Positions 3,338 through 14,194 of a DNA stretch of 60,751 nucleotides are shown one piece after another. Each line of letters starts with the position of its first letter. The stretch's first letter is position 1. Source of the DNA: a virus (lineage: Duplodnaviria; Caudoviricetes); IMG/VR virus record IMGVR_UViG_3300047552_001108, positions 1-60,751 of that record; one strand, given 5' to 3'. Under the pieces are notes generated by a model. The model had not been told where the DNA came from. It worked only from the letters and a program-made list of their open reading frames with translations, and did no database searches. The translations under genes and the position numbers were made by a program.

Positions 3338-3682
3338 ATGCCCAACTACAAACAAACGACGGTCAGCGGTGAGTCCTGGCAGCGCTGTTACAGCGTCACG
3401 ATGCGCAACCCGCTGGAGGGTGCAAAGCAGGTGGTGTTCGCCGAGGAAACCGTGGTGGACGTCGGCGGCCAACAGACCCGCTTCCCGGCTACCGGATGCT
3501 TCCAGGCCTTTGATGCCGATGGCGAGTTCCCTTTGCTGGACCCGGTGACCGGGCTTCAGGTCGGCACCGCGACCCATGCCCAGGTCTACGCCCTGCTGTA
3601 CTCGCTCTACATGGACACGGCTGCCAAACGCGACGCCACGCCGGAGGTCTACTCCACCGCGCTTCCGGGGGTTCCGGGATGA
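3338..3682 (+). CDS. Small fibre-associated protein (putative fibre chaperone), paralogue of 33447-33827
   Basis: GGAGGT at 3325-3330 before ATG 3338. Shares YK.TTV.G....RC, FAEE, LDP.TGL..GT, AQVY..YS.Y and RD with 33447-33827. Confidence 0.7.
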   Translation: MPNYKQTTVSGESWQRCYSVTMRNPLEGAKQVVFAEETVVDVGGQQTRFPATGCFQAFDADGEFPLLDPVTGLQVGTATHAQVYALLYSLYMDTAAKRDATPEVYSTALPGVPG

Positions 3683-4233
3683 CGCGCACGATCATCGCCA
3701 TCATGGGCGTCGCCGGCAGCGGAAAAACGGTGGTGGCCCGCCGCCTGGAAAACTACGGGTTCCAGCGCACCCGATTCGCGGCGCCGATCAAGGCCATGCT
3801 GAAGGTCGGCCTCGGCCTGAGCGATGCGCAGCTGGAGGGCGACCAGAAGGCCACGCCCATCCACGACCTTGGCGGGGCTTCGGCCCGGATGCTCATGCAG
3901 ACCCTCGGCACGGAGTGGGGCCGACGGATGATCCACCCGGACCTGTGGGCCAGCGCCTGGAAGCGCCATGTGGCCCGGATGGATGGACCTGTGGTGGTGG
4001 ACGACCTTCGGTTCCCGAATGAGGCCGCCGCAATCCGTGAAATGGGCGGGGTGATCTGGCGCGTCTACCGTCCAGGGTTGGTGACCCTGGACCATGCGTC
4101 CGAGCGGTCGCAGAAGCACATCGATGAGGACTTGCTGCTCAACAACGCCACCACCTTGGCCGACCTCGAAAAATCGGTCGATCTGGCGATGGGGCAGTTC
4201 CTCCGGGCGCGTGGCGAAGCCACGACTCTTTGA
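3679..4233 (+). CDS. Deoxynucleoside monophosphate kinase (T4 gp1-like)
   Basis: P-loop GVAGSGKT, FAAPIK, R.LMQTLGTEWGR, VVDDLRFPNE and H.SE motifs. Confidence 0.88.
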   Translation: MTRTIIAIMGVAGSGKTVVARRLENYGFQRTRFAAPIKAMLKVGLGLSDAQLEGDQKATPIHDLGGASARMLMQTLGTEWGRRMIHPDLWASAWKRHVARMDGPVVVDDLRFPNEAAAIREMGGVIWRVYRPGLVTLDHASERSQKHIDEDLLLNNATTLADLEKSVDLAMGQFLRARGEATTL

Positions 4234-4463: not shown

Positions 4464-5528
4464 TCACTCGGGCGAGTTGGACACCTTCTTGGGCAAGGCC
4501 AGCCCGAGGTCTGCCTCCTTGACCTCGAACCCGCGCAGGTAGCCCTCGGTGGTGGTCACCGAAACGTGGCCGGCAGCGTCGGCCAACTGCTGCAGGGACA
4601 GGCCCGCACGCTTGGCGTCAGAAAGTGCCTTTGGGCGAAGGTCGCGCATCCAGGCGTCTGCCACGCCTGCGCGGCTCCTGGCCCGCCTCCATGCCGACTT
4701 AACGGCCGATGCGGACAGCGGGGTGCCCTTGAGGGTGTGGAACACGTAGACCGGCGACTTCACCTTGCCCAGGCTCTTGGCCCGGTCGAGCACCTCCTGA
4801 ATGGCCGGGGTGATCTGCACGGCGATCTTGGCAGCGCTCGACTTTCGCGTCTTGGTCGGCTCAAGCAGGATTTCGGTCTTGCGAATGTCCGACCACCTGA
4901 GAAGCCGCACGTCCTTGGCTCTGGCGGCCGTGAGATAGGCCATGGCGAACAGGGCTGCGTACATCTCGCCGTTGGCGTTCTTCCAGGCCTTCCCGGTGCC
5001 GCTGTGCCGCCGGCCCGCCACGGCCGCCTCCATGACCTTCGCTGTGACCTCATGGGTCTGGTACACCCGACGAGGCCGTTCGTCGAGTTTGCGGACGTCG
5101 CGGCAAGGGTTGGCCTTCAGGATGCGCTTCTCGATGGCGTAGGTGCAGAGCACGGAAAGCAGGGCTTGGTACTTGTTCGCGCTGCGGGGCTTGTCCTTCC
5201 ACTGGTCGCGCAGGTCCATGACGTGGCCGGCGTCCAGTTCGGCGACGTCGATGTCGCGGAACGCCGCCTCGATCTTGGTGAGCATCAGCCCGTAGTCGCG
5301 CTGCGTGCAGGCCTCGTAGCCGGCAAGGCGCTCCCGCTTCCAGTCGGCGATGAGTGCCCCCCAGGAGCCTGGGCGGGCCGCCGGTGCGTCTTTGAACTTC
5401 GCCAGGGCACGCAGCATGGCCGGTTCGCCGTCAGCGATGGCGCAGAGGCGGTGCCACTTGCCTTGCCGGTCTACGAAAAAAAACGCGCCGTGGCGCGTGT
5501 AGACCCGCTTGTAGCCGGTGCTGCTCAT
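4464..5528 (-). CDS. int: Tyrosine recombinase / phage integrase
   Basis: LTAAR..DV..L.WSDI, KT.K, RDLR (in place of HxxR), AGH and terminal GY; adjacent to attP. Confidence 0.92.
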   Translation of the reverse strand: MSSTGYKRVYTRHGAFFFVDRQGKWHRLCAIADGEPAMLRALAKFKDAPAARPGSWGALIADWKRERLAGYEACTQRDYGLMLTKIEAAFRDIDVAELDAGHVMDLRDQWKDKPRSANKYQALLSVLCTYAIEKRILKANPCRDVRKLDERPRRVYQTHEVTAKVMEAAVAGRRHSGTGKAWKNANGEMYAALFAMAYLTAARAKDVRLLRWSDIRKTEILLEPTKTRKSSAAKIAVQITPAIQEVLDRAKSLGKVKSPVYVFHTLKGTPLSASAVKSAWRRARSRAGVADAWMRDLRPKALSDAKRAGLSLQQLADAAGHVSVTTTEGYLRGFEVKEADLGLALPKKVSNSPE

Positions 5529-5725
5529 GTCACCTTCCTCACTTGGCGGACGGCCTTGGCCTGCGGGGGCCGGGTGGCCGACTCAAGGTGCGCCCGGAGA
5601 ACAACCGGCTCACCGGACGCGTTGACGTAGGCAGGGATGCCGTAGTGGTCCCGAATCCAGGCCACTTGGTCCCGTGGGCGCCGGTAGCCGGTGACCATCA
5701 CCAACTCCACCTGGGTCAGAAGCAT
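5525..5725 (-). CDS. DUF4224-like protein, probable excisionase
   Basis: LT..EL...TGY.RP..Q..W....GIP......G.PVV.R pattern; overlaps the int start. Confidence 0.7.
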   Translation of the reverse strand: MLLTQVELVMVTGYRRPRDQVAWIRDHYGIPAYVNASGEPVVLRAHLESATRPPQAKAVRQVRKVT

Positions 5726-5746
5726 GGCTCTGGCCTCGAAACCCGG

Positions 5747-6103
5747 TCAAGTGAAGCCGACCATCAGCGAGGGCGGCCGGGGCAGATCGGCCCCGGTTGG
5801 GCGCCATAGGTGCAGGCAGTTCGGGTGGTTGTTGACGTAGTCGCTGCGGGGCGGGTGGTATTGCACAACGCAGTCGTCCTCGGTCCAGAACAGCGCCTTG
5901 ATCTGGCACATCTCGTCCCAGGTCGGCGACCGGTCCTTGCGCGACACGCTCACATGCTCCCAGCCCAACTGATTGCTTGCGATCACGAACACCCGTTGGC
6001 CGTGCTTGAGGGGCACCTCGAAAGCGCCGCTGCAGCCGAAGCTGGCGTCGCTCCCGAGGCGCCCATCCCGCACCCGGTACTTCTCAGGTACGCGGAACGC
6101 CAT
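5747..6103 (-). CDS. Conserved phage hypothetical protein
   Basis: GWEHVSVS..R.PTW.EM..IK.LFW...VQYHP...YVN.HP.CLHLWRP, a common phage motif; ATG at 6103. Confidence 0.75.
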   Translation of the reverse strand: MAFRVPEKYRVRDGRLGSDASFGCSGAFEVPLKHGQRVFVIASNQLGWEHVSVSRKDRSPTWDEMCQIKALFWTEDDCVVQYHPPRSDYVNNHPNCLHLWRPTGADLPRPPSLMVGFT

Positions 6104-6105
6104 GG

Positions 6106-6378
6106 TCAGGCCGCCTGCAGTGATGGGTTGAGCATGTCCACAGGCATGCCGTGCATCCGGCCCTTGCACTTGATCCACGGGCCGTCCGGGTGGTGGTTGC
6201 CATCCCAGCGCATGAGCGCGTCAGCTGCATCTTCGTGCCGTTCGAAGCAGTACCGGCGCTCGTAGCCTTTCTCGTCTAGGCCGACCATCAGGCCGACCGT
6301 GAACATGAACTGCTGCAGGCCGCACATCTGCCCGTTGATTTTGCGCAGGTGGGTGTAGCCGAGGTCGTGGAGGTTCAT
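6106..6378 (-). CDS. Hypothetical protein
   Basis: Compact ORF packed in the operon with overlapping start/stop codons. Confidence 0.7.
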   Translation of the reverse strand: MNLHDLGYTHLRKINGQMCGLQQFMFTVGLMVGLDEKGYERRYCFERHEDAADALMRWDGNHHPDGPWIKCKGRMHGMPVDMLNPSLQAA

Positions 6379-6854
6379 GCGTCCTCCCGCGTCACTGTTT
6401 CGCTCTCGTTGCCTGTGGCGAGATACCCGGAGGTCGGGCTGTAGCCGTTACCACCAGGGTGCCCATCGACAGGCTTTGCCACTTGACGCTGCACCGTCTC
6501 GCGCACCGCGTTTGGCTTGAACACCATGTTCATCGCTGCCTGCCACGTATCGGCCACCGCCTTGTGCTTCTCGGCCTCGTAGACAGCCTTCTTGCCGTCC
6601 TCGGCGGACTTCTGCATCGCTGCTATCCGAGAGTTCAGCCCTTCAATTTCCAGGCGCTGCTGGTTGAGCAAGGCTGATTGATCCCGGTTCGTCTTGAGCA
6701 GTTCGTCGTATCGCCCTCGCAGCGTGTCGCGCTCAACCGTCACGGCGTCCAGCGAATCCTTGATCTTCTTAATACCTTCCAGGGCGTCCAGCCCGAAGGT
6801 GTGCGACGCGACCAGATCGTCGATCTGGGAAAGCAGTTGCTCTTTGGTGCTCAT
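6375..6854 (-). CDS. Hypothetical coiled-coil protein
   Basis: Heptad-rich central region; ATGA overlaps with neighbours. Confidence 0.7.
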   Translation of the reverse strand: MSTKEQLLSQIDDLVASHTFGLDALEGIKKIKDSLDAVTVERDTLRGRYDELLKTNRDQSALLNQQRLEIEGLNSRIAAMQKSAEDGKKAVYEAEKHKAVADTWQAAMNMVFKPNAVRETVQRQVAKPVDGHPGGNGYSPTSGYLATGNESETVTREDA

Positions 6855-7408
6855 GCTGCCTCCCCAAATGCCCTGATCCGCTGGGCAAGGCAGCCGCTGT
6901 AGTCGTCCATGGCGGCAAGCTGTGCGAGCAATCTCACCCGCTCTTCGTTCGGAAGCTCGTGGAAGGTATTAGTGCTGGTGAAGGCCGCCAGCTTCTTGAT
7001 GCGCTCGTCCAGTTCCGCCGCCTCGGCCCGCACGCGGGTGCGGAAGTCGGGCGACTGCGCGGCCAGCCGCTCCTTGAGCGCATATCCCATCAGCGGCCAC
7101 ACCTTACTGATTGCGTTGGCCCGGGCGATCTTGCGGCCCACCTCGGCGTCGAAGTTCTCGGGGCTGGCGCACGCACTCTCACCCGTGACGGTGAATCCGT
7201 TGCGCAGCACCAGGACGCAGAAGGTCAGCAAGTTAAGTGGCTGCACCCAGCCATCCGGCAGCACACTCATGTTGCAACTGCCAGCGCACCCTTGTGCCGC
7301 AGTGAAGTAGTGCGCCGAGGCGATATTGGCCTCAATGTCCTGCGGAGTCACACGCGGGGCGGTCAGGCCCTTGGCCTGGATTTCTTGCTCGATCTGTTGG
7401 TCGTTCAT
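6851..7408 (-). CDS. Fusion of a Gp49/Gp66-family domain (Acb4-like) and a crAss001_48-like domain (Sequestin-like); putative anti-defence nucleotide sponge
   Basis: N-term PRVT..DIE..I....Y..LTFCVLVLRNGFTVTGESACASPENFD.E.G.KIAR.NA..K.W.L.GY. C-term R...E..EL.ERI.KL..F.....F..L...ER..L..Q...M..Y...L..RI..F. Confidence 0.75.
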   Translation of the reverse strand: MNDQQIEQEIQAKGLTAPRVTPQDIEANIASAHYFTAAQGCAGSCNMSVLPDGWVQPLNLLTFCVLVLRNGFTVTGESACASPENFDAEVGRKIARANAISKVWPLMGYALKERLAAQSPDFRTRVRAEAAELDERIKKLAAFTSTNTFHELPNEERVRLLAQLAAMDDYSGCLAQRIRAFGEAA

Positions 7409-7653
7409 GCGGCGTCTCCTGCGGTCTTGGCAGGCTCTGCCTTGGGCACTTCGGCCTTGGCAAGGGATTCCTTCGCTGCAGCCTCCGCTGCTTGCTTTGC
7501 CGCGTTCGCTGCGTTCATGGCGTTGATAGCCTCGTTGCCACGCTGCTGAAGCAGGGCGATGTGGTTGGCGGAGAACTCGTAGGGCATCTTCGCCAGCGCC
7601 TGGATCGCTGCGTTGACCGTTTCGAGGGGAATGGTGACGTTGATCTCGTTCAT
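7405..7653 (-). CDS. Hypothetical protein
   Basis: Packed in the operon; L.K.PYE.S...I..L..Q motif and Ala-rich tail. Confidence 0.65.
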   Translation of the reverse strand: MNEINVTIPLETVNAAIQALAKMPYEFSANHIALLQQRGNEAINAMNAANAAKQAAEAAAKESLAKAEVPKAEPAKTAGDAA

Positions 7654-7706
7654 GCTTCTAGTTCCTTGGTGCGCCGCGCATTAGGGGCTGCGCGGCATGG
7701 CCCTGA

Positions 7707-8534
7707 TCAGTTGCTGCGGGTGTACTTGCCGAGTGACACGGGAATGCCGGACTTGATGGTCGCCGACACCTTGGCCGCGAACTGCAGCGCCATCTCTTCG
7801 CCGTGCTGTTCCTGCTTCACGATACGCAGAACCGGCACCGGCTTGTCTGCCCCGGTGAGGACTCCGAATCGCATCACGAACAGCCGCTCAGGCAGGCCTG
7901 CATACGGTTCGCAGGTGAAATAGATGTGTGTCGGGATCGGGTCAGCACTCGTGGCCTGCACCGACTCGAACGTGGACTTCGATGCGGCCAGAGACTGCTC
8001 GCTGCTTTCCAGCTTGCGCATGGACTCGATGCTCAACTTGCGGATGGCCGTGATGGCCTTCTTGCCGGTCACCTTCTCGTTGTCCTTGAAGCACTCGATC
8101 ATGTCTTGCCAGTCCTCCAAGAACTCGGCCGCTGCCGCTTGAGAAAGGCCGCGACCGTTCGCGTGCTGCAGCAGGGCCTCGTAGGCGGCGGTCTTTTTCA
8201 TGGTCACGACGGCGAGGTTGTCGGCGTGTCCAGGCTCGTCCTTCGTGCCAAGGTTCAGGACTGCCGTGGCGCTCATCGATTGGGCGTCGACAAAAACTCG
8301 TGCGCCGTCGCTGGAGTGCGCGACGGTGTACTCGGCAAACGCCTCAACCGATTCGGTGCTCATCACTCCGCGTGCGCGTCGGCGAACCGCCATGTATGGC
8401 TCAAGGTCGCGCAGCTTGAAATGCTCTGGCAGCGCGGCAATGGTGTCGCCCGCGAGGGCCGACTGGACCGCATCAATAGCCTGCTGGATCGATGCGCCCT
8501 CAGAGATGGCTTCGATGGCTTCTTTGTCGAACAT
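7707..8534 (-). CDS. DUF2303 (YfdQ-like) protein
   Basis: DLE.YM..RRR.RG.M.T.S...F..Y, A.AVLNLG....PGHAD, Q...AEFLEDW and C.PY.GL..R motifs; AAAGGAAG RBS before ATG 8534. Confidence 0.8.
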   Translation of the reverse strand: MFDKEAIEAISEGASIQQAIDAVQSALAGDTIAALPEHFKLRDLEPYMAVRRRARGVMSTESVEAFAEYTVAHSSDGARVFVDAQSMSATAVLNLGTKDEPGHADNLAVVTMKKTAAYEALLQHANGRGLSQAAAAEFLEDWQDMIECFKDNEKVTGKKAITAIRKLSIESMRKLESSEQSLAASKSTFESVQATSADPIPTHIYFTCEPYAGLPERLFVMRFGVLTGADKPVPVLRIVKQEQHGEEMALQFAAKVSATIKSGIPVSLGKYTRSN

Positions 8535-8544
8535 GGTGCTTCCT

Positions 8545-8886
8545 TTATGCCGGCTCTTTGCCGAAGATCTGCAGTTGGTTTTCAGGGGCGAGGGACAGCT
8601 TCCCGTACTTGCCGACGTGCATCGGGGTCGAGCGGCTTTCTTTCTCGGTGGCTTCACCGTCCATGGTCGGGCGGCTGAATTTCAGCGTGTGCTTGATGTG
8701 AACCTGGGACGTTCCGGGGATCGCAACCACCGAGAACTCGACGGTCACCTTGCCTTGTCGGGCGTTATCGCACACGGCGGCAGCGACGGAGGACAGGGCA
8801 ATCGACAGCTTGCGTTCGAAGATGCCGCCATCGAGGTCGCTGATGAACTCAGAGACGTCGGTTGCAGCAGAGAGTGATTCAGACAT
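8545..8886 (-). CDS. YfdP-like protein (usual partner of DUF2303)
   Basis: T.V.EFI.DLDGG.F..KLS.ALS.VA..V......GKVT and TPM.VGK.G.LS..PE.Q; AAGGAG RBS. Confidence 0.75.
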   Translation of the reverse strand: MSESLSAATDVSEFISDLDGGIFERKLSIALSSVAAAVCDNARQGKVTVEFSVVAIPGTSQVHIKHTLKFSRPTMDGEATEKESRSTPMHVGKYGKLSLAPENQLQIFGKEPA

Positions 8887-8899
8887 TGGTGCTCCTTGG

Positions 8900-9343
8900 T
8901 CAAACAAATGCGGTCAGGTCGGGCGCCTTGTAGTCCTTGCCCTTGCCGATCTTTCCGCCGGGGAGGATCACCGGGCGGCCGTCCTCCAGCTTCGAGTCGT
9001 TGGAGGCGAGGACCGCCTGATCGGCCGCGTCCTTGTCGAAGCCGCTCAGGTAGGCCACGCCGTTGATCGTCACCTCGACGTCGCACAGCGCATCGAGTGC
9101 GCCGACGCGATCCTCGTCGGTGATGATCACTTGGGCCTTGCCGCTCTTGAGCAGCGTGCCGGCGCGTTCCAGGGCCTCGATGGCGAGGTTGATCACGGCG
9201 CGGGTGCCTTGCTCTCTCCCGGACAGGTGTTCGAGGAACTCGGTGAATTCCTCAATCGCGCACCCGGCCTGGACCGTGATGTTGTCGCCTGGGACTTTCC
9301 CGCAGGCCTGCAGCCACGCTGCCGTTCGTTGGTAGTTCGTCAT
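8900..9343 (-). CDS. MazG-like all-alpha NTP pyrophosphohydrolase
   Basis: IEEFTEF, ALDALCD..V...G and V..SN.SK..DG.P.....GK..KG..Y..PDL motifs. Confidence 0.8.
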   Translation of the reverse strand: MTNYQRTAAWLQACGKVPGDNITVQAGCAIEEFTEFLEHLSGREQGTRAVINLAIEALERAGTLLKSGKAQVIITDEDRVGALDALCDVEVTINGVAYLSGFDKDAADQAVLASNDSKLEDGRPVILPGGKIGKGKDYKAPDLTAFV

Positions 9344-9552
9344 GACGCAACCACTCCGACGTTGCCCTTCATGGCCTGACGCGAGGCCAAAAACGTGGTG
9401 AGGATGCGTTCCTTTGGCGTCTGGTATCCGAACGCGACGTGCTTGCCGCTGCGCCGGAGGCTTTCGCTGGCCTCCCGCTGGCGCTGCAGGGTTCGCGTCT
9501 GCAGCACCTCCAACTCGTCAGGCGGCGCTTGATTCGGTGTCTTTTGGAACAT
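9340..9552 (-). CDS. Hypothetical protein
   Basis: Short ORF packed in the operon. Confidence 0.5.
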   Translation of the reverse strand: MFQKTPNQAPPDELEVLQTRTLQRQREASESLRRSGKHVAFGYQTPKERILTTFLASRQAMKGNVGVVAS

Positions 9553-9781
9553 GGTTGGTCTTTCTCGCCACGAGGGCGTCAACGCGTGCAAGCAGGGACT
9601 GCACGCGGCTGCTAAGTTCTGCCGTCACAAGGTCACCTGCGAACAGGTCACCTTGCGCCTTGCTGGCTATTGCTGCCGCACGAGCGTCGTGCGACTTGCG
9701 CATGCACACCGGCCCGATTCCAACCTGGGTCGAAAAAAGGCCTGTCAGCTTGCGGTTGCATCGGGTACAGCGGTCTATCAC
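9518..9781 (-). CDS. DUF6011-like zinc-finger protein
   Basis: CxxC-R-LT...S...GIGP.C signature. Confidence 0.7.
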   Translation of the reverse strand: MIDRCTRCNRKLTGLFSTQVGIGPVCMRKSHDARAAAIASKAQGDLFAGDLVTAELSSRVQSLLARVDALVARKTNHVPKDTESSAA

Positions 9782-10125
9782 TTCAGCTTCTTGAACATGG
9801 CCGCCAGGATCGGCTCGGGCTTGGGGACACGATGCTTCCGGCGGTAGTTGCGCATCATTTCGGCGTTGGTCTTACCGACAGGCCTCGGCGCGTCGGTCCC
9901 GCTGCCACCGGCATACACCGGGTGCCACGGGCCTTGCTTGTGCCTTCGCTCCCATCGGTCGATGTGAACCTCGCCGTGCTTGTGCAGGTACTTGAGGTAC
10001 TCGCGGACTCGGCGAATGTGCAAGTGCGCCACCTCCTCGGCATCGTGTGCCGAGAGTTCGCGGCCAGCCTCGAACGCTGCTCGCAGCCTGCGCATGTGGC
10101 TTGTTTTTGGGATGGGTACGGTCAT
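9778..10125 (-). CDS. Winged-helix-like DNA-binding protein, paralogue of 17043-17393
   Basis: LSA.......V..YL..L...G.V.I..W ... YA.G.G.DAPRP. Confidence 0.6.
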   Translation of the reverse strand: MTVPIPKTSHMRRLRAAFEAGRELSAHDAEEVAHLHIRRVREYLKYLHKHGEVHIDRWERRHKQGPWHPVYAGGSGTDAPRPVGKTNAEMMRNYRRKHRVPKPEPILAAMFKKLK

Positions 10126-10163
10126 GGCCCTCAACAGAAAAGCGTTGCTCCATGCTTACTCCT

Positions 10164-10319
10164 TCAGCACCGATAGCCGATGCAGAACAGAAACTTCGCC
10201 AGTCTGAATGCGGCACCGACAAAGACGATGCAGCCTGCCCAGATGGCGAACAGCAAAACGAAACTGGTGAGAAGACTGATCCAGTCCTCGGGGCCTGATC
10301 GCCCCCATTTCCTCTTCAT
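10164..10319 (-). CDS. Small membrane protein
   Basis: 51 aa with a long hydrophobic stretch; overlaps the upstream stop. Confidence 0.5.
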   Translation of the reverse strand: MKRKWGRSGPEDWISLLTSFVLLFAIWAGCIVFVGAAFRLAKFLFCIGYRC

Positions 10320-10660
10320 GCCGCAGCCTCCAACGATGCAAGGCGCCACACCGGCTGTGCCCGAGAGTGGCTTCTCGCGGACCGACTGGCGCGAAGTTGT
10401 CCGGTCTTTGCGATGAGGTTGCGCTTGCTCATAGCGAGGCAAACCGCACCCCAGGCGTTGGGCGATGGCGGTTCGTCGAGTCCCTGCCGGGTGGCGAACT
10501 CGCGCACTTCCTCGAACAACGCGCCGTCGTGGCCTGCGTTGGCGAAGAATCGCAGAGCGATCTGAACGGCTTTGTCGTGCCACTCTTGCCCCGCGTTCTT
10601 GAGTGCCTTCGCAGCGCCCTCGTCGCGCAGCTGGCGGCTGAAATCAAGCGTCTGCTGCAT
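10316..10660 (-). CDS. Hypothetical protein
   Basis: P.SPNAWGAV and S..SHSR...VW motifs seen in phage hypothetical proteins. Confidence 0.7.
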   Translation of the reverse strand: MQQTLDFSRQLRDEGAAKALKNAGQEWHDKAVQIALRFFANAGHDGALFEEVREFATRQGLDEPPSPNAWGAVCLAMSKRNLIAKTGQLRASRSARSHSRAQPVWRLASLEAAA

Positions 10661-10677
10661 GCCGCTTCACCCTGATC

Positions 10678-10995
10678 CTAGAACGGGATGTCGTCGTCCA
10701 TGTCATCGAACCCCGTGTTTCTCTTCTGCTGTGGCTTCGGGGCAGGAGAGGGGGGCGGGGCCGACGATCCACCGTTCTTCTCGCGCAGATCGAACTGCGA
10801 AAGGATCACCATTTCCTTGTTGTCCGGGTTCGGAACGCCTGCCGGGTTGAACGTCCGGTTGATGGTGATGAACTTCGAGCCGTCGTCCTTCTCGAAGATC
10901 GCCCCGCAGTTGACGTAGCGGTTCTTGGTGTTTCCCTCGCGGTCGGTGTACGAGCCGGTCTTCACCGCGAGGTCATAGATTTTCTTGGTTCCCAT
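10678..10995 (-). CDS. Single-stranded DNA-binding protein-like, with acidic DDIPF tail
   Basis: Y.D..G..K.R....G core, Pro-rich linker, C-terminal FDDMDDDIPF; AAGGAG RBS. Confidence 0.75.
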   Translation of the reverse strand: MGTKKIYDLAVKTGSYTDREGNTKNRYVNCGAIFEKDDGSKFITINRTFNPAGVPNPDNKEMVILSQFDLREKNGGSSAPPPSPAPKPQQKRNTGFDDMDDDIPF

Positions 10996-11245
10996 TCGTT
11001 TCTCCTTGTGGCTGGGGGGGCATGAGTTCTTGCGGCGGAACGCCGATGATTTCTGCGGCGCGGACCAGCATGTCGGCACGCATCATTCGCGCACCGGCCT
11101 CATGCCAGCGGATCGTGTTCACGGAGCAGTCGAGGCGGCGCGACAGTTCTTTCAGCCACACCCTTTGTCGGCGTCGGACCGTTCGAAACTGTGCGCCAAG
11201 CGCCGCCTCAATCTCACCCCGGGGTTCCAGTTTCGTCACCATCAT
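10973..11245 (-). CDS. XRE-family HTH regulator
   Basis: LG...R..R......LKELS.RL.CS.NTI...E.G.R......L...A..IGV....L. Confidence 0.75.
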   Translation of the reverse strand: MMVTKLEPRGEIEAALGAQFRTVRRRQRVWLKELSRRLDCSVNTIRWHEAGARMMRADMLVRAAEIIGVPPQELMPPQPQGETNGNQENL

Positions 11246-12002
11246 TTCCCTCGGTGGTAGTGCCCTGGTTGGGCGGGTTGGCCTTCGGCGCGTCCCCGGC
11301 GAACGCATCGAGTGCCGCTTTCGAACGACGCGGTTGCTCCTGCTTGCGCACGGGGGCCGCTGTCACGTCGATGATGTCTTGCGCCTCTTCGGCGAACGAG
11401 AGGCCGCGCAGCACGTCGGCGAAGCCGGCACGCAGCGTCCAGGCCCTCGCACGCATCTGCAGCATCCTGGCGCGGTATTGCTGCCACGGCCCGGACTTTC
11501 CGAGAAGGCCGGCAGCCTTCGCGTCCTCGTCGGTGAAGGTGTGCGAGATCGGCGATTCGATGCCGCGCCGCTTGGCGGTGCAGGTGTAGCCGGTGATCAC
11601 GCCGTTGTCGTTCTTGATCGGCTCTTCGCGGAAGTCGGTCATCAGGCCGGACGCCTGAACGATTGCGAGAGCGCCGTCGCCCCAGATGCTCGGGGTGCCG
11701 TTGATCACAGCGATGGACTGCAGCGCCGCGATGGGCGTGAGGCCGAGTTCGAGGCCGTGCATGATGCCCACCACGATCTTGCTCTCGTCGTAGGCGCCGT
11801 CTTTCTGGTACGACTTCGGCGCCCAGCCGGCAATGGAGATGGCCTTTGCCATCCTGAAGGTTTCCTCGATGCTCGTCGGGACGATGGCGCGAACGGCGCT
11901 GCCGGACATGAGTTGCGGCTTGGCGGGTGCAGGGTGGGCGACTTGCTGCTGCAGCGCTGCAGCGGGGCGGGCAGTTCCCGCGAGTTCGATGGTTTCACTC
12001 AT
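11214..12002 (-). CDS. recT: RecT/Bet-like single-strand annealing protein
   Basis: I..GLELGL.P..ALQSIAVING.PS.WGD, F...DAK.AGL..K.GPW.QY..RML..RAR...LR..F.DVL.G; downstream of YqaJ. Confidence 0.8.
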   Translation of the reverse strand: MSETIELAGTARPAAALQQQVAHPAPAKPQLMSGSAVRAIVPTSIEETFRMAKAISIAGWAPKSYQKDGAYDESKIVVGIMHGLELGLTPIAALQSIAVINGTPSIWGDGALAIVQASGLMTDFREEPIKNDNGVITGYTCTAKRRGIESPISHTFTDEDAKAAGLLGKSGPWQQYRARMLQMRARAWTLRAGFADVLRGLSFAEEAQDIIDVTAAPVRKQEQPRRSKAALDAFAGDAPKANPPNQGTTTEGNDGDETGTPG

Positions 12003-13018
12003 TTCGCTTCCTCGATCTTGGTGATGGTCAGGGCGCCCCGATACGTCAGTGCGGATTGGGTGCGTGCGGGGATCAGCTTTTCCTGGCGGGTGATGCTTGG
12101 CCACGATGCGCGGTAGCGCGAACCCTTGGCCTTGGTGGCGTCACCGAACAACTCCATCAGGCGACCCTTGAGGTTGGAAGCTCGAACATCCATGCGGTCC
12201 ATGTGGCGCTTCAGGCGTGCGTACTGGCCGCACAGCACCGAGAAACGTTCGTTGTCGGAGAGGTCCACCAACTTTCCCGACTCGCCCTCGGCAAGCAGCT
12301 TCGAGACTGTCTCGGCGTCGGCAACTCGATTGGGGGATACGCCGGACCTGACCGCAGCCCAAAACGCTGCGATGGCCTCTCCGATCTTCTGCTGCGACGC
12401 CTCGTGCCGTTCGATGCGGCCCCGATGCAGTTTGTTGCCGGCAACGCAGGCGACGATCCAGCCGTGGTCGGTGCCTGCAGCGCCGATCTGGTGCTGCAAC
12501 TGCAGCAGGTAGTTCATCGGCGGCAGCATGATTTCGCCGTCGTCGACCAACCACTTGTCGCGGAACACGACGAAGTCGACGTTCTTCAACTCGACCGGGA
12601 CTCGTGTGAGGCCGTCGCCGTGAAGTTCGTAGTCAAGGCTGGCGCCCCAACCGTCAATCGTGTCGTGCTGAAGGTAGCGGTGAACCTTGCGCAGCGGCCA
12701 TTCCCACTTCTGCTTGGACCACTCGGCGATTGCCGGCTCAAGGTGGATGCCCGCTTGGATGCGCTCGTTCTCGTCGAACGAATCGGGCATCAGTTGACCG
12801 GCCTTCTCCTGCCAGAGACGGTAGCCGGTCTTGTGCGGTGAGAGGCATTCGAGAAGGTGCCAATCTTCCGGCACCTCCTCGAACATGTGGCGGACGACCT
12901 CTTCGCCGTCCGTGGTGATCCAGCGGTAGAACAGGCTGGCAACTTCAGATCCACCGATGTGGCTTTCGCGGATTGAGTGCCACGCCGCCTCATCGGGTAT
13001 CGGTACGCTTCTCGGCAT
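11999..13018 (-). CDS. YqaJ / lambda-exonuclease family recombinase nuclease
   Basis: W...R...IGGSE.A, G..LEP.I, GASLD, ELKN and Y..QLQHQ motifs. Confidence 0.88.
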   Translation of the reverse strand: MPRSVPIPDEAAWHSIRESHIGGSEVASLFYRWITTDGEEVVRHMFEEVPEDWHLLECLSPHKTGYRLWQEKAGQLMPDSFDENERIQAGIHLEPAIAEWSKQKWEWPLRKVHRYLQHDTIDGWGASLDYELHGDGLTRVPVELKNVDFVVFRDKWLVDDGEIMLPPMNYLLQLQHQIGAAGTDHGWIVACVAGNKLHRGRIERHEASQQKIGEAIAAFWAAVRSGVSPNRVADAETVSKLLAEGESGKLVDLSDNERFSVLCGQYARLKRHMDRMDVRASNLKGRLMELFGDATKAKGSRYRASWPSITRQEKLIPARTQSALTYRGALTITKIEEAK

Positions 13019-13051
13019 CTGCTTCTCCTTTGTGTTTTGAACCGCAGGAGA

Positions 13052-13080
13052 AGTATGTCATGGCCGTGATAGCGATGCAA
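13052..13080 (-). promoter_or_regulatory. Leftward sigma70-like early promoter with overlapping 16-bp operator (13056-13071)
   Basis: TTGCAT-17 bp-CATACT on the minus strand; TGTCAT-GGCC-GTGATA; extra GTGATA half sites at 13098, 13130 and 13140. Confidence 0.7.
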
Positions 13081-13148
13081 GCTAAATGCTCAGTGTGGTG
13101 ATATTTCCTCCGTCAGAAGTTACATTCTGGTGATACCGCGTGATACTC

Positions 13149-13799
13149 TCAAGCCTGGGTGATCGAAAGCACCGGATGCGCCTCTACCACCTCGACGTTT
13201 TCCATCGGAGCGGCTCCCCAAGACAGCAGCGTGAACAGGCCTGCGGTCGATCCACGTCGAATCTCGCGCACGAGCGGCTGGGTTGCCCCGCGCACGCGCA
13301 CTACGCACAACTTGCCAAGAAGTTCATCAGGCGGCTTTGCTTCCGCCGAGAAGAACAACAGCCAATCAGCAGGGATAGGATGCAAACCATCGCCATCGAT
13401 GCGGGCTGCAACAGCGTCGACGCCTTGCGGCAGGCCAACTGGCCGGTCCACCGTGACGTTCTCATCCATCGGAAACAACCTTCCATAGATGCCCACGAGC
13501 CACCGCAGCGCGACTGCGCCTTTCCCCGTGGTTTGAGAGGCGCTCACGTCCTTCTTCCGCGCCTGGGGCGCGGCACGCCCGCCCACCAACTCATCGACGG
13601 ACACACCAGCCGCTCTTGCCAGCCTTTGCAGGCTGTCGTAGGTCAGGCTGTGAGAACGCCCCGCGATGAAGTTGTAGATGGTGCTGCTTCGAAGGCCTGC
13701 GGCCTTCGCCCAGGGATGGGGCTTGAGGCCCCGTGCGTCCATGAACGCTTGCAAAGCGTCCCGGGACACGACGCCCGGGGAGGCGTCTTTGATCGTCAT
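13149..13799 (-). CDS. CI-like repressor (HTH plus degenerate S24 domain)
   Basis: N-terminal HTH (WAKAAGL.SSTIYNFI.GRS..L....L.RLA.A.GVSV.EL). C-terminal S24-like fold with GDGL and LVREI at the usual GDSM and Lys positions. Confidence 0.75.
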   Translation of the reverse strand: MTIKDASPGVVSRDALQAFMDARGLKPHPWAKAAGLRSSTIYNFIAGRSHSLTYDSLQRLARAAGVSVDELVGGRAAPQARKKDVSASQTTGKGAVALRWLVGIYGRLFPMDENVTVDRPVGLPQGVDAVAARIDGDGLHPIPADWLLFFSAEAKPPDELLGKLCVVRVRGATQPLVREIRRGSTAGLFTLLSWGAAPMENVEVVEAHPVLSITQA

Positions 13800-13864
13800 G
13801 ATATGCGCTTCTCCTTTTGTCGAATTGGCCGCTCATCGTCGGCTTATGTTTTGTCCAACGTCGC

Positions 13865-14194
13865 ATGAAATACCCAGTCAGCAAGTACAACGCGGTCCCC
13901 ACTGTGGTGGACAACATCCGTTTTGCCTCCAAGCGTGAAGCGAACCGCTACTACGAACTTAAGGTGCTGCAGAAGGCCGGTGAAATCACGGACCTAAAGT
14001 GCCAGCCGCGCTTCCCGCTGGTGGTGCGCGGCACGAAGATCTGCACCTACGTGGCCGACTTCTCGTACCGGAACAAGTCCGGCGAACTGGTCGTGGAGGA
14101 TGTGAAAAGCAAACCTACCATGACCCCGGCCTTCCGCCTCAAGGCAAAGCTACTACAAGCCGTCGAGGGGATCACCGTCAGCGTGGTGATGTGA
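13865..14194 (+). CDS. DUF1064 family PD-(D/E)XK nuclease-like protein
   Basis: SKYNA..T.VD.I.F.SK.EA.RY..LK, QPRF.L, Y.ADF.Y and VEDVK motifs. Confidence 0.85.
   Translation: MKYPVSKYNAVPTVVDNIRFASKREANRYYELKVLQKAGEITDLKCQPRFPLVVRGTKICTYVADFSYRNKSGELVVEDVKSKPTMTPAFRLKAKLLQAVEGITVSVVM

Follow-up and report, generated by a model that had tools for sequence, protein, structure and literature searches.

We describe a gene on the minus strand of an uncultured temperate phage genome that probably encodes a two-domain sponge for nucleotide immune signals, of the Acb4-Sequestin type, as judged from sequence comparison and structure models. The window analyzed here comprises the whole virus record of 60,751 nucleotides (CheckV completeness 100%), and no tRNA genes were found in it. 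This architecture is known from other phages, in which it has also been put to experimental test, and the present protein brings nothing new in principle. It does offer a likely functional annotation for a gene that previously had no name.

Positions 6851..7408, minus strand: complete coding sequence of the Acb4-Sequestin fusion, 185 aa plus a TGA stop, with an ATG start (ORF list).

This open reading frame is a real gene. Its GC3 of 0.81 is similar to that of the adjoining genes (the window as a whole has a GC content of 63.6%), a Shine-Dalgarno sequence precedes the start codon, the start and the stop each share an ATGA overlap with an adjoining gene, and the first 20 residues are kept across 68 aligned homologues.

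Positions 7415..7420, minus strand: Shine-Dalgarno sequence AGGAGA, 6 nt 5' of the fusion ATG (read from the sequence).
Positions 7405..7653, minus strand: upstream 82-aa ORF, whose TGA overlaps the fusion ATG as ATGA (ORF list).
Positions 6375..6854, minus strand: downstream 159-aa ORF, helical and coiled-coil-like, whose ATG overlaps the fusion TGA as ATGA (ORF list).

Because of the ATGA overlap, translational coupling between the 82-aa ORF and the fusion is indicated. The 82-aa and 159-aa ORFs, as well as a 90-aa ORF, had no Pfam or PHROG family, the 159-aa product giving only sub-threshold Pfam matches. When the two coupled ORFs were considered as anti-defence candidates, the Atlas likewise gave only sub-threshold or non-specific matches.

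Both halves of the fusion match known protein families far beyond chance. A reading made from the DNA letters without database searches had recognized the N4 Gp49/Sf6 gp66 pattern in aa 1-116 and the crAss001_48 helical hairpin pattern in aa 120-185, and HMM searches bore out both assignments.

Positions 7064..7351, minus strand: Acb4 domain PF13876 (Phage_gp49_66), aa 20-115 (Pfam E 5e-33).
Positions 6872..7051, minus strand: Sequestin domain PF21825 (crAss001_48), a helical hairpin, aa 120-179 (Pfam E 2.3e-17).

The match to PF13876 covers the full profile (positions 1-82) at 113.9 bits, against a Pfam cut-off of 27, and that to PF21825 covers profile positions 1-60 of 61 at 63.1 bits (cut-off, 24.8). 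The domain borders proposed earlier differ from the Pfam envelopes by no more than the N-terminal 19 and the C-terminal 6 residues, and the motif NGFTVTGESACASPENFD corresponds to aa 70-87 of the ORF. The sequence-only reading had also stated, correctly, that the first family includes the CBASS sponge Acb4 and the second the Thoeris sponge Sequestin: the founding member of PF13876 is SPO1 Acb4, a 3'3'-cGAMP sponge (10.1101/2024.12.30.630793), and PF21825 has received the name Sequestin, for a sponge of 3'cADPR that inhibits type I Thoeris (10.1101/2025.07.12.664507).

In an AlphaFold2 model of the fusion (mean pLDDT 86.4), the Acb4 half contains strands (aa 29-36, 61-68 and 73-79) followed by a helix (aa 88-116). 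This modelled beta-strand core with its long helix (aa 29-116) is three-stranded and helix-flanked, like the solved SPO1 Acb4. The SPO1 structure, PDB 9e4w, was matched by the fusion as a single sequence (phmmer, E 0.0058) and by the 68-sequence family profile (E 3.5e-06), and in a Foldseek search of the model against PDB the top ten matches were all to 9e4w (E 8.5e-04, probability 1.00, target TM 0.63-0.73). By sequence and predicted fold, the N-terminal half is homologous to SPO1 Acb4. Its core is invariant in the 68 sequences at T62, C64, G71, V74-G76, S78-C80, E84-F86 and R96.

The residues that line the ligand are less well kept. In SPO1 Acb4, contacts are made by K36, F48, E49, V56, Y57, F62, N63, I66, T70 and K81 (10.1101/2024.12.30.630793), and the equivalents in the fusion are, in the same order, L60, F72, T73, C80, A81, F86, D87, V90, I94 and P105. 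Two of the ten are identical (F72 and F86, which correspond to the base-stacking F48 and F62), and V90 for I66 is a conservative change. L60 and T73 take the place of the guanine-reading K36 and E49, and P105 that of K81, which contacts the phosphate. Validated Acb4 homologues from Gram-negative phages likewise diverge from SPO1 at contact sites. Because only two contacts are identical, the base specificity of the Acb4 half cannot be read from its residues.

This divergence is relevant to the view that only one half of the protein is effective, such that Sequestin neutralizes type I Thoeris and the Acb4 domain serves mainly as a tetramer scaffold, increasing avidity and stoichiometry, with cyclic-dinucleotide binding too weak to matter. 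We regard this as unlikely. It would account for the two-in-ten identity and for the lack of equivalents of K36, E49 and K81, and it finds a parallel in the Pseudomonas phage protein Ab09 gp59, which binds gcADPR very tightly and cGAMP more weakly, and antagonizes CBASS only in part. However, all eight purified Acb4 homologues in the report on this family bound 3'3'-cGAMP (10.1101/2024.12.30.630793), the Acb4 of phage N4 (41% identity) binds c-di-AMP at 111 nM (10.64898/2026.08.10.743972), and the strong conservation of the Acb4 core across 68 sequences exceeds what a scaffold would need.

The Sequestin half was modelled as two helices, aa 122-143 and 154-183, with pLDDT of 91-99. In BFVD, it matched the structure predicted for 'Shock protein C' of crAss001 over 60 columns, with a target TM of 0.92 and an rmsd of 0.9. 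Searches of PDB copies by sequence, and by Foldseek in a copy to April 2026, yielded no experimental structure of a Sequestin, and for this reason the fold of the C-terminal half is set only against predicted models; a crystal structure of the Ab09 Sequestin domain has been reported (10.64898/2026.06.04.730250).

This half keeps all four residues assigned to 3'cADPR binding. The contacts described are R8, E12, 'O47' (as printed; Q47) and R61 in SequestinA and R7, E11, 'O45' (as printed; Q45) and R59 in SequestinB, and alanine changes at the E, Q or R led to loss of activity (10.1101/2025.07.12.664507). In the fusion, the corresponding residues are R125, E129, Q163 and R177, which are invariant in the 68 homologues (R125 in at least 90%), align with R7, E11, Q45 and R59 of T4 Y16O, and are also present at the equivalent sites of Ab09 gp59. 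In the same report, type I Thoeris was inhibited by 10 of the 13 PF21825 proteins tested, the other three being without inhibition (10.1101/2025.07.12.664507).

The intact Sequestin contacts argue against a protein that is no signal sponge at all, for instance one that binds nucleic acids, acts as a regulator or serves as an anti-CRISPR, and we consider such a role most improbable. It would be in keeping with the dsRBD-like fold of Acb4, whose monomer is similar to dsRNA-binding domains (10.1101/2024.12.30.630793), and with a stand-alone homologue in Pseudomonas phage vB_PaeS-D14C that GenBank labels 'Anti-CRISPR protein' without a stated basis. Yet the PF13876 and PF21825 literature that we found, which consisted of the sponge papers and unrelated work, held no experimental basis for this label, and for both families there is direct biochemical evidence of signal sequestration.

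A model of four copies passes its controls and supports a tetramer of the fusion. It scored 0.84, compared with 0.00 for the best control. Among proteins of solved structure, this mark was attained by 20 of 30 one-chain pairs and 1 of 23 single chains. The run used a custom alignment and four copies, unlike the calibration of the tool, and the pass may reflect likeness because an Acb4 tetramer is already solved. Contact agreement in the homotetramer runs was at least 91% and partner pLDDT at least 83. The modelled interfaces take in nine of the ten positions equivalent to SPO1 ligand contacts, together with Q163 and R177, and residues 155-180 of two copies, including these two residues, are predicted to be in mutual contact. 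Residues 6-20 also fall in the predicted inter-protomer interface, at a part of the protein that characterized relatives largely lack.

Positions 7352..7408, minus strand: N-terminal extension, aa 1-19, with a helix at aa 3-13 (alignments).

This extension is missing in Ab09 gp59 and mostly missing in N4 gp49; its I10, A17 and R19 are invariant across the 68 homologues.

In the reading that we favor, with a functional sponge in each half, four copies would join through their N-terminal Acb4 domains to form a pinwheel tetramer. Its inter-protomer pockets would sequester adenine-containing CBASS cyclic dinucleotides, for instance 3'3'-cGAMP and, probably, molecules of the c-di-AMP type. The helical hairpins of the C-terminal half would pair into Sequestin dimers, with pockets at the dimer interface that sequester 3'cADPR (1''-3' gcADPR), the type I Thoeris signal. 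With these signals sequestered, CBASS and Thoeris effectors would stay inactive and the phage could replicate. That one protein might neutralize two immune signalling systems had been proposed in the sequence-only reading; the proposal matches experiments with Ab09 gp59 and is supported here by homology, conserved residues and models. The ligand identity, affinity, expression timing and effect on defence given for the fusion are what we infer.

Between the first and second strands, the Acb4 half carries an insert.

Positions 7232..7297, minus strand: insert, aa 38-59, with C41-x3-C45 (gap relative to Ab09 gp59).

Among the 120 best homologues, 17 bear the insert signature, G-C-[AS]-G-x-C-x-M, the members besides the query being 15 stand-alone proteins and one Tad2 fusion. 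Cysteines C41, C45, C64 and C80 are conserved in this subclade, and the guanine-reading residues of SPO1 are absent from it; for these two reasons the subclade may bind a signal unlike those of characterized Acb4 proteins. In another reading, the ligand spectrum would be shifted, the Acb4 domains of the subclade binding, for example, a c-di-AMP-type, 2'3'-linked or trinucleotide signal in place of 3'3'-cGAMP and the fusion acting on another pair of defences. This seems to us quite improbable. Besides the unconserved guanine-specific residues, it draws on the position of the conserved, subclade-specific insert in the predicted protomer interface, on the binding of 3'3'-cAA by those Acb4 homologues, and only those, that came from phages of Gram-negative hosts (10.1101/2024.12.30.630793), and on the binding of 2',3'-cAA by Ab09 gp59. 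Nevertheless, each of the eight homologues tested bound cGAMP, the insert is modelled at lower confidence than the rest of the protein (pLDDT ~70), and nothing puts it in the pocket.

Of the 120 best homologues in the database, 91 (query counted) carry both the PF13876 and the PF21825 domain. Coverage of the query is 80% or more in 110 phage records, and both domain orders are seen among the relatives, that of the query being Acb4 followed by Sequestin. Longer relatives carry additional N-terminal third modules that have no Pfam family; these modules are not encoded in the window by tblastn (best E 0.073).

The Acb4 half of the query belongs to the mostly stand-alone C-x3-C subclade, which suggests an independent fusion. 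In a quick tree of this half, the branch that joins the query to stand-alone proteins had an SH-aLRT of 82-88, under the 95 mark, and the Tad2 fusions P0090 and P0108 were among its close relatives. It is conceivable, if on balance doubtful, that this copy is an independent and recent fusion, that temperate phages reshuffle sponge domains recurrently and at a fast pace, and that the subclade binds a different signal. The present case is of use for cataloguing and for two small leads, namely that sponge modules may have been re-fused independently and that the Pfam-less third modules of longer relatives might be further sponge families.

The fusion gene is part of what is probably the early leftward operon of a temperate phage. 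The order on the minus strand is a Cro/C1-type repressor, RecE-like, RecT-like, MazG-like and DUF2303 genes, the fusion, an excisionase and an integrase, and no minus-strand terminator-like site was found between the repressor and integrase genes.

Positions 13149-13799, minus strand: Cro/C1-type repressor gene (HTH PF13443, 23.4 bits; cut-off, 22).
Positions 13124..13152, minus strand: putative leftward early promoter, between the repressor and recombination genes, on weak evidence (sigma-70-like site).

The promoter candidate is the sole sigma-70-like site in positions 5500-13900, a count of one that equals the shuffle mean of 1.0, i.e., chance level. We call the fusion early from its place in the leftward operon, downstream of the repressor gene, and it would be co-transcribed with the recombination and excision genes.

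Twelve neighbors of the fusion (xis through RecE, except orf118 and RecT) had no matches in 80 related viral loci, and the integrase, RecT and orf118 were each matched in one of the 80. Since the neighbors are nearly absent from these loci, the neighborhood is not a conserved cassette. When 24 kb of the window were compared with cultured phages by megablast, only four small matches resulted, none covering more than 3% of the query, and no close cultured relative was found.

The Acb4-Sequestin fusion studied by experiment so far belongs to a lytic, N4-like phage of Pseudomonas; the window places such a gene also in a lambdoid-type temperate early leftward operon. A prophage with the fusion should overcome type I Thoeris and CBASS upon induction or infection, and should be vulnerable to systems that sense sponges, such as Panoptes and PanDA.

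One of the closest known systems is Ab09 gp59. It has both domains in the same order as the query (BLASTP E 4e-26), and the two proteins share the Acb4 core motif as well as the four Sequestin contacts (R/E/Q/R). It binds 1'',3'-gcADPR tightly, 3'3'-cGAMP more weakly and also 2',3'-cAA, forms a tetramer by SEC-MALS and triggers Panoptes; its antagonism of CBASS was partial, and deletion of gp59 alone left the phage unsensitized (10.64898/2026.06.04.730250). A tetramer is also predicted for the query. The two proteins are 32-35% identical (46% over the Acb4 half) and differ in length (147 aa for gp59 and 185 aa for the query). The N-terminal helix of 18 residues and the insert at aa 38-59 of the query have no counterpart in gp59, which has K at the position of P105. 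The gp59 gene belongs to a lytic N4-like phage, where it is found in the anti-signalling hot spot; that of the query lies in a temperate leftward early operon beside xis and int.

Sequestin was itself discovered through its frequent fusion to Acb4, with 91 instances of PF13876 plus PF21825 in Pfam and a protein of Pseudomonas phage YH6 as an example (Fig. 1C legend), and Table S1 of that report contains 3,244 Sequestins from IMG/VR v4 (10.1101/2025.07.12.664507). The YH6 protein is described as having the domain pair that the query also has. The query protein may already be included in that table or in Table S3 of the Acb4 paper.

The single-domain relatives resemble one half each. SPO1 Acb4 (9e4w) has in common with the query its Pfam family, sequence and fold matches and the stacking Phe residues, but is a 96-aa protein with ~21-24% identity in the structural alignment, and eight of ten ligand contacts differ, the guanine-reading pair included. 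Escherichia phage N4 gp49 (Acb4) has 41% identity over the Acb4 half and the core motif in common with the query; it is a stand-alone 123-aa protein without a Sequestin domain, has a C-terminal tail unlike that of the query, and triggers PanDA and Panoptes. T4 Y16O belongs to PF21825, is 30% identical to the query and aligns exactly at R/E/Q/R. However, T4 Y16O and SequestinA/B are stand-alone homodimers of 64-80 aa, whereas the Sequestin of the query is tethered to a partner predicted to tetramerize. Finally, the Acb4-Tad2 fusion of Pasteurella phage Pm86 blocks both Thoeris and CBASS (10.1101/2025.07.12.664507). Like the query, it has two sponge domains per chain, the partner of Acb4 being Tad2 (PF11195) in Pm86 and Sequestin in the query.

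The open reading frame (ORF) at 6851-7408 on the minus strand is intact, starts with ATG and encodes 185 aa. The sequence-only reading had described its product as a fusion of an Acb4-like and a Sequestin-like domain, and searches against Pfam-A confirmed this architecture, with both profiles matched well over their cut-offs. PF13876 (Phage_gp49_66) aligned with aa 20-115 along its entire 82-position profile (E 5e-33; 113.9 bits, cut-off 27 bits), and PF21825 (crAss001_48) with aa 120-179 at profile positions 1-60 of 61 (E 2.3e-17; 63.1 bits, cut-off 24.8 bits). The motif cited in that reading corresponds to aa 70-87. In PHROGs, the protein matched phrog_322 (E 6.9e-58) and phrog_3934 (E 2.4e-42), neither with an assigned function. 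Several features suggest that the ORF is a genuine gene: its GC3 is 0.81 (window GC 63.6%), AGGAGA lies 6 nt ahead of the ATG, its start and stop form ATGA overlaps with the stop of an 82-aa upstream ORF and the start of a 159-aa downstream ORF, and its N-terminal residues are conserved across 68 homologues.

The papers describing the two families bear out both assignments: PF13876 is Acb4 (10.1101/2024.12.30.630793) and PF21825 is Sequestin (10.1101/2025.07.12.664507). SPO1 Acb4 was assigned to PF13876, a family of 1,331 members at the time; it is a tetrameric sponge that binds four 3'3'-cGAMP molecules at protomer interfaces, and all eight purified homologues bound this ligand (10.1101/2024.12.30.630793). 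PF21825 was selected as the commonest fusion partner (91 instances with Acb4 and 60 with Tad2); it binds 3'cADPR, was named Sequestin, and inhibited type I Thoeris in 10 of 13 members tested. The same paper lists 3,244 Sequestins and pictures a PF21825-Acb4 fusion of Pseudomonas phage YH6 in its Figure 1C (10.1101/2025.07.12.664507). The idea of one protein acting on two immune systems has also already been tested in a homologue, Ab09 gp59, an "Acb4-Sequestin" fusion (Acb4 aa 1-83, Sequestin aa 84-147) described in a 2026 preprint. This tetramer binds 1'',3'-gcADPR very tightly, 3'3'-cGAMP more weakly and also 2',3'-cAA; its anti-Thoeris I activity is strong and its anti-CBASS II-A activity partial, and it triggers Panoptes (10.64898/2026.06.04.730250).

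In a structural model of the fusion built with AlphaFold2 on the 68-homologue alignment (mean pLDDT 86.4), the Sequestin half forms a pair of long helices (aa 122-143 and 154-183, pLDDT >90). It superimposed on the crAss001 protein, the namesake of the family, in the BFVD library with a target TM of 0.92 and an rmsd of 0.9 over 60 columns. The reported 3'cADPR contacts are R8, E12, "O47" (as printed; taken as Q47) and R61 in SequestinA, and R7, E11, "O45" (as printed) and R59 in SequestinB; alanine at the E, Q or R61/R59 positions abolished activity (10.1101/2025.07.12.664507). In the fusion, E129, Q163 and R177 show no variation among the 68 homologues, and R125 is kept in at least 90% of them; an alignment of ten sequences, Ab09 gp59 among them, has no variation at any of the four. 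In a three-way alignment with the Ab09 gp59 Sequestin domain and T4 Y16O, which was validated in the Sequestin paper (10.1101/2025.07.12.664507), these residues, at domain positions 7, 11, 45 and 59, are among nine invariant columns.

The Acb4 half was linked to its family by structure as well. A phmmer search of PDB sequences matched only SPO1 Acb4 (9e4w; E 0.0058, aa 61-109), a match that the 68-homologue profile improved to E 3.5e-06, and the ten top Foldseek matches of the model in PDB were all 9e4w chains (best E 8.5e-04, prob 1.00; target TM 0.63-0.73, identity 21-24%). The ligand contacts of SPO1 Acb4, K36, F48, E49, V56, Y57, F62, N63, I66, T70 and K81 (10.1101/2024.12.30.630793), were transferred through HMMER alignments and fall on L60, F72, T73, C80, A81, F86, D87, V90, I94 and P105, respectively. 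Identity is thus confined to the two stacking Phe residues; the guanine-reading K36/E49 pair is not preserved. This divergence would suit a protein in which only the Sequestin half matters; we consider this unlikely, as the Acb4 half has nearer validated relatives in Gram-negative proteins, being 41% identical to N4 gp49 and 46% identical to the Acb4 half of Ab09 gp59. For N4 Acb4, binding of c-di-AMP at 111 nM is reported (10.64898/2026.08.10.743972). Because of these relatives, adenine-containing cyclic dinucleotides are expected as ligands of the Acb4 half. A shifted ligand spectrum would also fit the replaced contacts; the 3'3'-cGAMP binding of all eight purified homologues speaks against it, and we consider it slightly less probable still.

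A four-copy model of the fusion scored 0.84 (best control 0.00). In the calibration, which used two copies and the tool's own alignments, 20 of 30 proteins solved as same-chain pairs and 1 of 23 solved as single chains reached this mark; the fusion run used four copies and a custom alignment. Contact agreement between runs was at least 91% and partner pLDDT at least 83. In the predicted tetramer, one copy contacts three others. The first contact involves the strand region (aa 33-44 and 57-81), the second the N-terminal helix and aa 80-115, and the third aa 68-72 and 102-116 along with the Sequestin helices (aa 155-180). This predicted pattern agrees with the two kinds of interface reported for Acb4, plus a Sequestin pairing, and the pass may reflect likeness to the already solved Acb4 tetramer.

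The fusion gene lies among the following features of the window, which is a complete virus record of IMG/VR (CheckV completeness 100%).

13149-13799, minus: Cro/C1-type HTH repressor
11999-13018, minus: YqaJ/RecE-like exonuclease
11214-12104, minus: RecT-like annealing protein
between 12104 and 9343, minus: several small ORFs, unknown
8900-9343, minus: MazG-like pyrophosphatase (nucleotide pyrophosphohydrolase; PHROG 671, E 2.4e-23; no Pfam match)
8545-8907, minus: phrog_204 protein (PHROG)
7707-8657, minus: DUF2303 (E 5e-51)
7405-7653, minus: 82-aa ORF, no known family
6851-7408, minus: Acb4-Sequestin fusion (Pfam PF13876 and PF21825)
6375-6854, minus: 159-aa helical ORF, no known family
6106-6378, minus: 90-aa ORF, no known family
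5747-6178, minus: DUF7694
5525-5725, minus: excisionase
4464-5528, minus: integrase

No minus-strand terminator-like sites were found in 5500-13900. The early status that the sequence-only reading gave the protein may reasonably be inferred from this lambdoid gene order. A single promoter-like site (13124-13152) lies at the place predicted for a leftward early promoter, but chance alone would also give one site. Four successive ORFs (82 aa, fusion, 159 aa and 90 aa; 6106-7653) are linked by ATGA overlaps at 7405-7408, 6851-6854 and 6375-6378. No known family was found for the three partners; the comparison with the anti-defence island in which Ab09 gp59 lies makes them candidate counter-defence genes as well. 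The operon continues immediately upstream with the DUF2303, phrog_204 and MazG-like genes (7707-9343, minus); a nucleotide pyrophosphatase next to a nucleotide sponge may offer an extra means of manipulating signals or nucleotide pools. Beyond the integrase lies a deoxynucleoside monophosphate kinase-like gene (3679-4233, plus; phrog_139, E 2.5e-47), so the recorded phage genome does not end with the integrase; the linear record probably either is permuted or contains more than int-to-end.

A word-indexed search with the fusion scored 8000 candidates, all at E <= 0.001. Among the best 120, 91 (query included) have both domains, 27 have PF13876 alone and 2 have PF13876 with Tad2. Matches occurred in 659 cultured phage records, 110 of which covered at least 80% of the query, and at least 589 IMG/VR stretches encode a relative. 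In the best 80 IMG/VR loci, whose ranking by best segment favors the Acb4 half, the gene is fused in 7 (6 in Acb4-Sequestin order, 1 reversed), the domains occupy separate neighboring or overlapping ORFs in 4, and Acb4 stands alone within 4 kb in 69. Twelve of the window neighbors occur in none of these 80 loci, and integrase, RecT and orf118 in one each; the fusion gene therefore moves by itself, as one module.

Within the best 120 homologues, the Acb4 half is nearest to stand-alone proteins of 117-121 aa. Its identity is at most 87.8% (median 79.3%) to 29 Sequestin-less sequences, two of them Tad2 fusions, and at most 78.0% (median 70.0%) to the Acb4 halves of the other 90 Sequestin fusions; as ranking was by full-length score, weak stand-alone proteins are missing from this set, but any fusion whose Acb4 half was closer would still rank high. 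A quick maximum-likelihood tree placed the query in a 17-member group whose other members are 15 stand-alone proteins and a single Tad2 fusion, with weak support (SH-aLRT 82-88). Independently of the tree, 17 of the 120 (15 stand-alone proteins, one Tad2 fusion and the query) share a conserved G-C-[AS]-G-x-C-x-M insert, and this distribution points to an independent, fairly recent union of a stand-alone-type Acb4 with Sequestin, or to loss in all relatives. The subclade-specific insertion spans aa 38-59 (window 7232-7297) and carries a conserved C-x3-C (C41, C45); with C64 (120 of 120) and C80 (119 of 120), the Acb4 half has four conserved cysteines.

Some relatives outside the window are longer. 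Six (P0036, P0070, P0086, P0094, P0076 and P0099) carry a third, N-terminal module of ~75 aa, which precedes both Sequestin-Acb4 and Acb4-Sequestin and is 52-76% identical among five of them, P0094 being weaker. PHROG profiles join it to Acb4 alone (phrog_9467) and to Sequestin alone (phrog_32732); it had no match in Pfam at E <= 5 or in PDB sequences, and is not encoded in the window. The module may represent another sponge family, given that Sequestin itself was discovered through "guilt by fusion". In P0020 and P0024, another module of ~95 aa (85% mutual identity; phrog_2293 match; no match in Pfam or PDB sequences) stands ahead of Acb4-Sequestin.

Two Pseudomonas phage records, BK061477.1 (23060-23419) and PV173770.1, contain stand-alone Acb4 homologues labeled "Anti-CRISPR protein"; the one in the former is 69.5% identical to aa 1-116 of the fusion. 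No basis for the label was given in the BK061477.1 record or in the available portions of the Acb4 and Sequestin family papers, and it is probably an annotation error. With the label unsupported and both halves matched to sponge families, a non-sponge or anti-CRISPR function is very improbable.

Overall, the protein is quite likely a dual sponge of the Acb4-Sequestin type, judging from its domains, Sequestin contact residues and predicted assembly, the main uncertainty being the ligand spectrum and strength of the Acb4 half. The original interpretation was correct, and the fusion joins a published, experimentally supported class as a further member. It differs from Ab09 gp59 in having 18 additional residues at the N terminus, folded as a helix that is part of a predicted interface, and the aa 38-59 insert, which Ab09 gp59 lacks.
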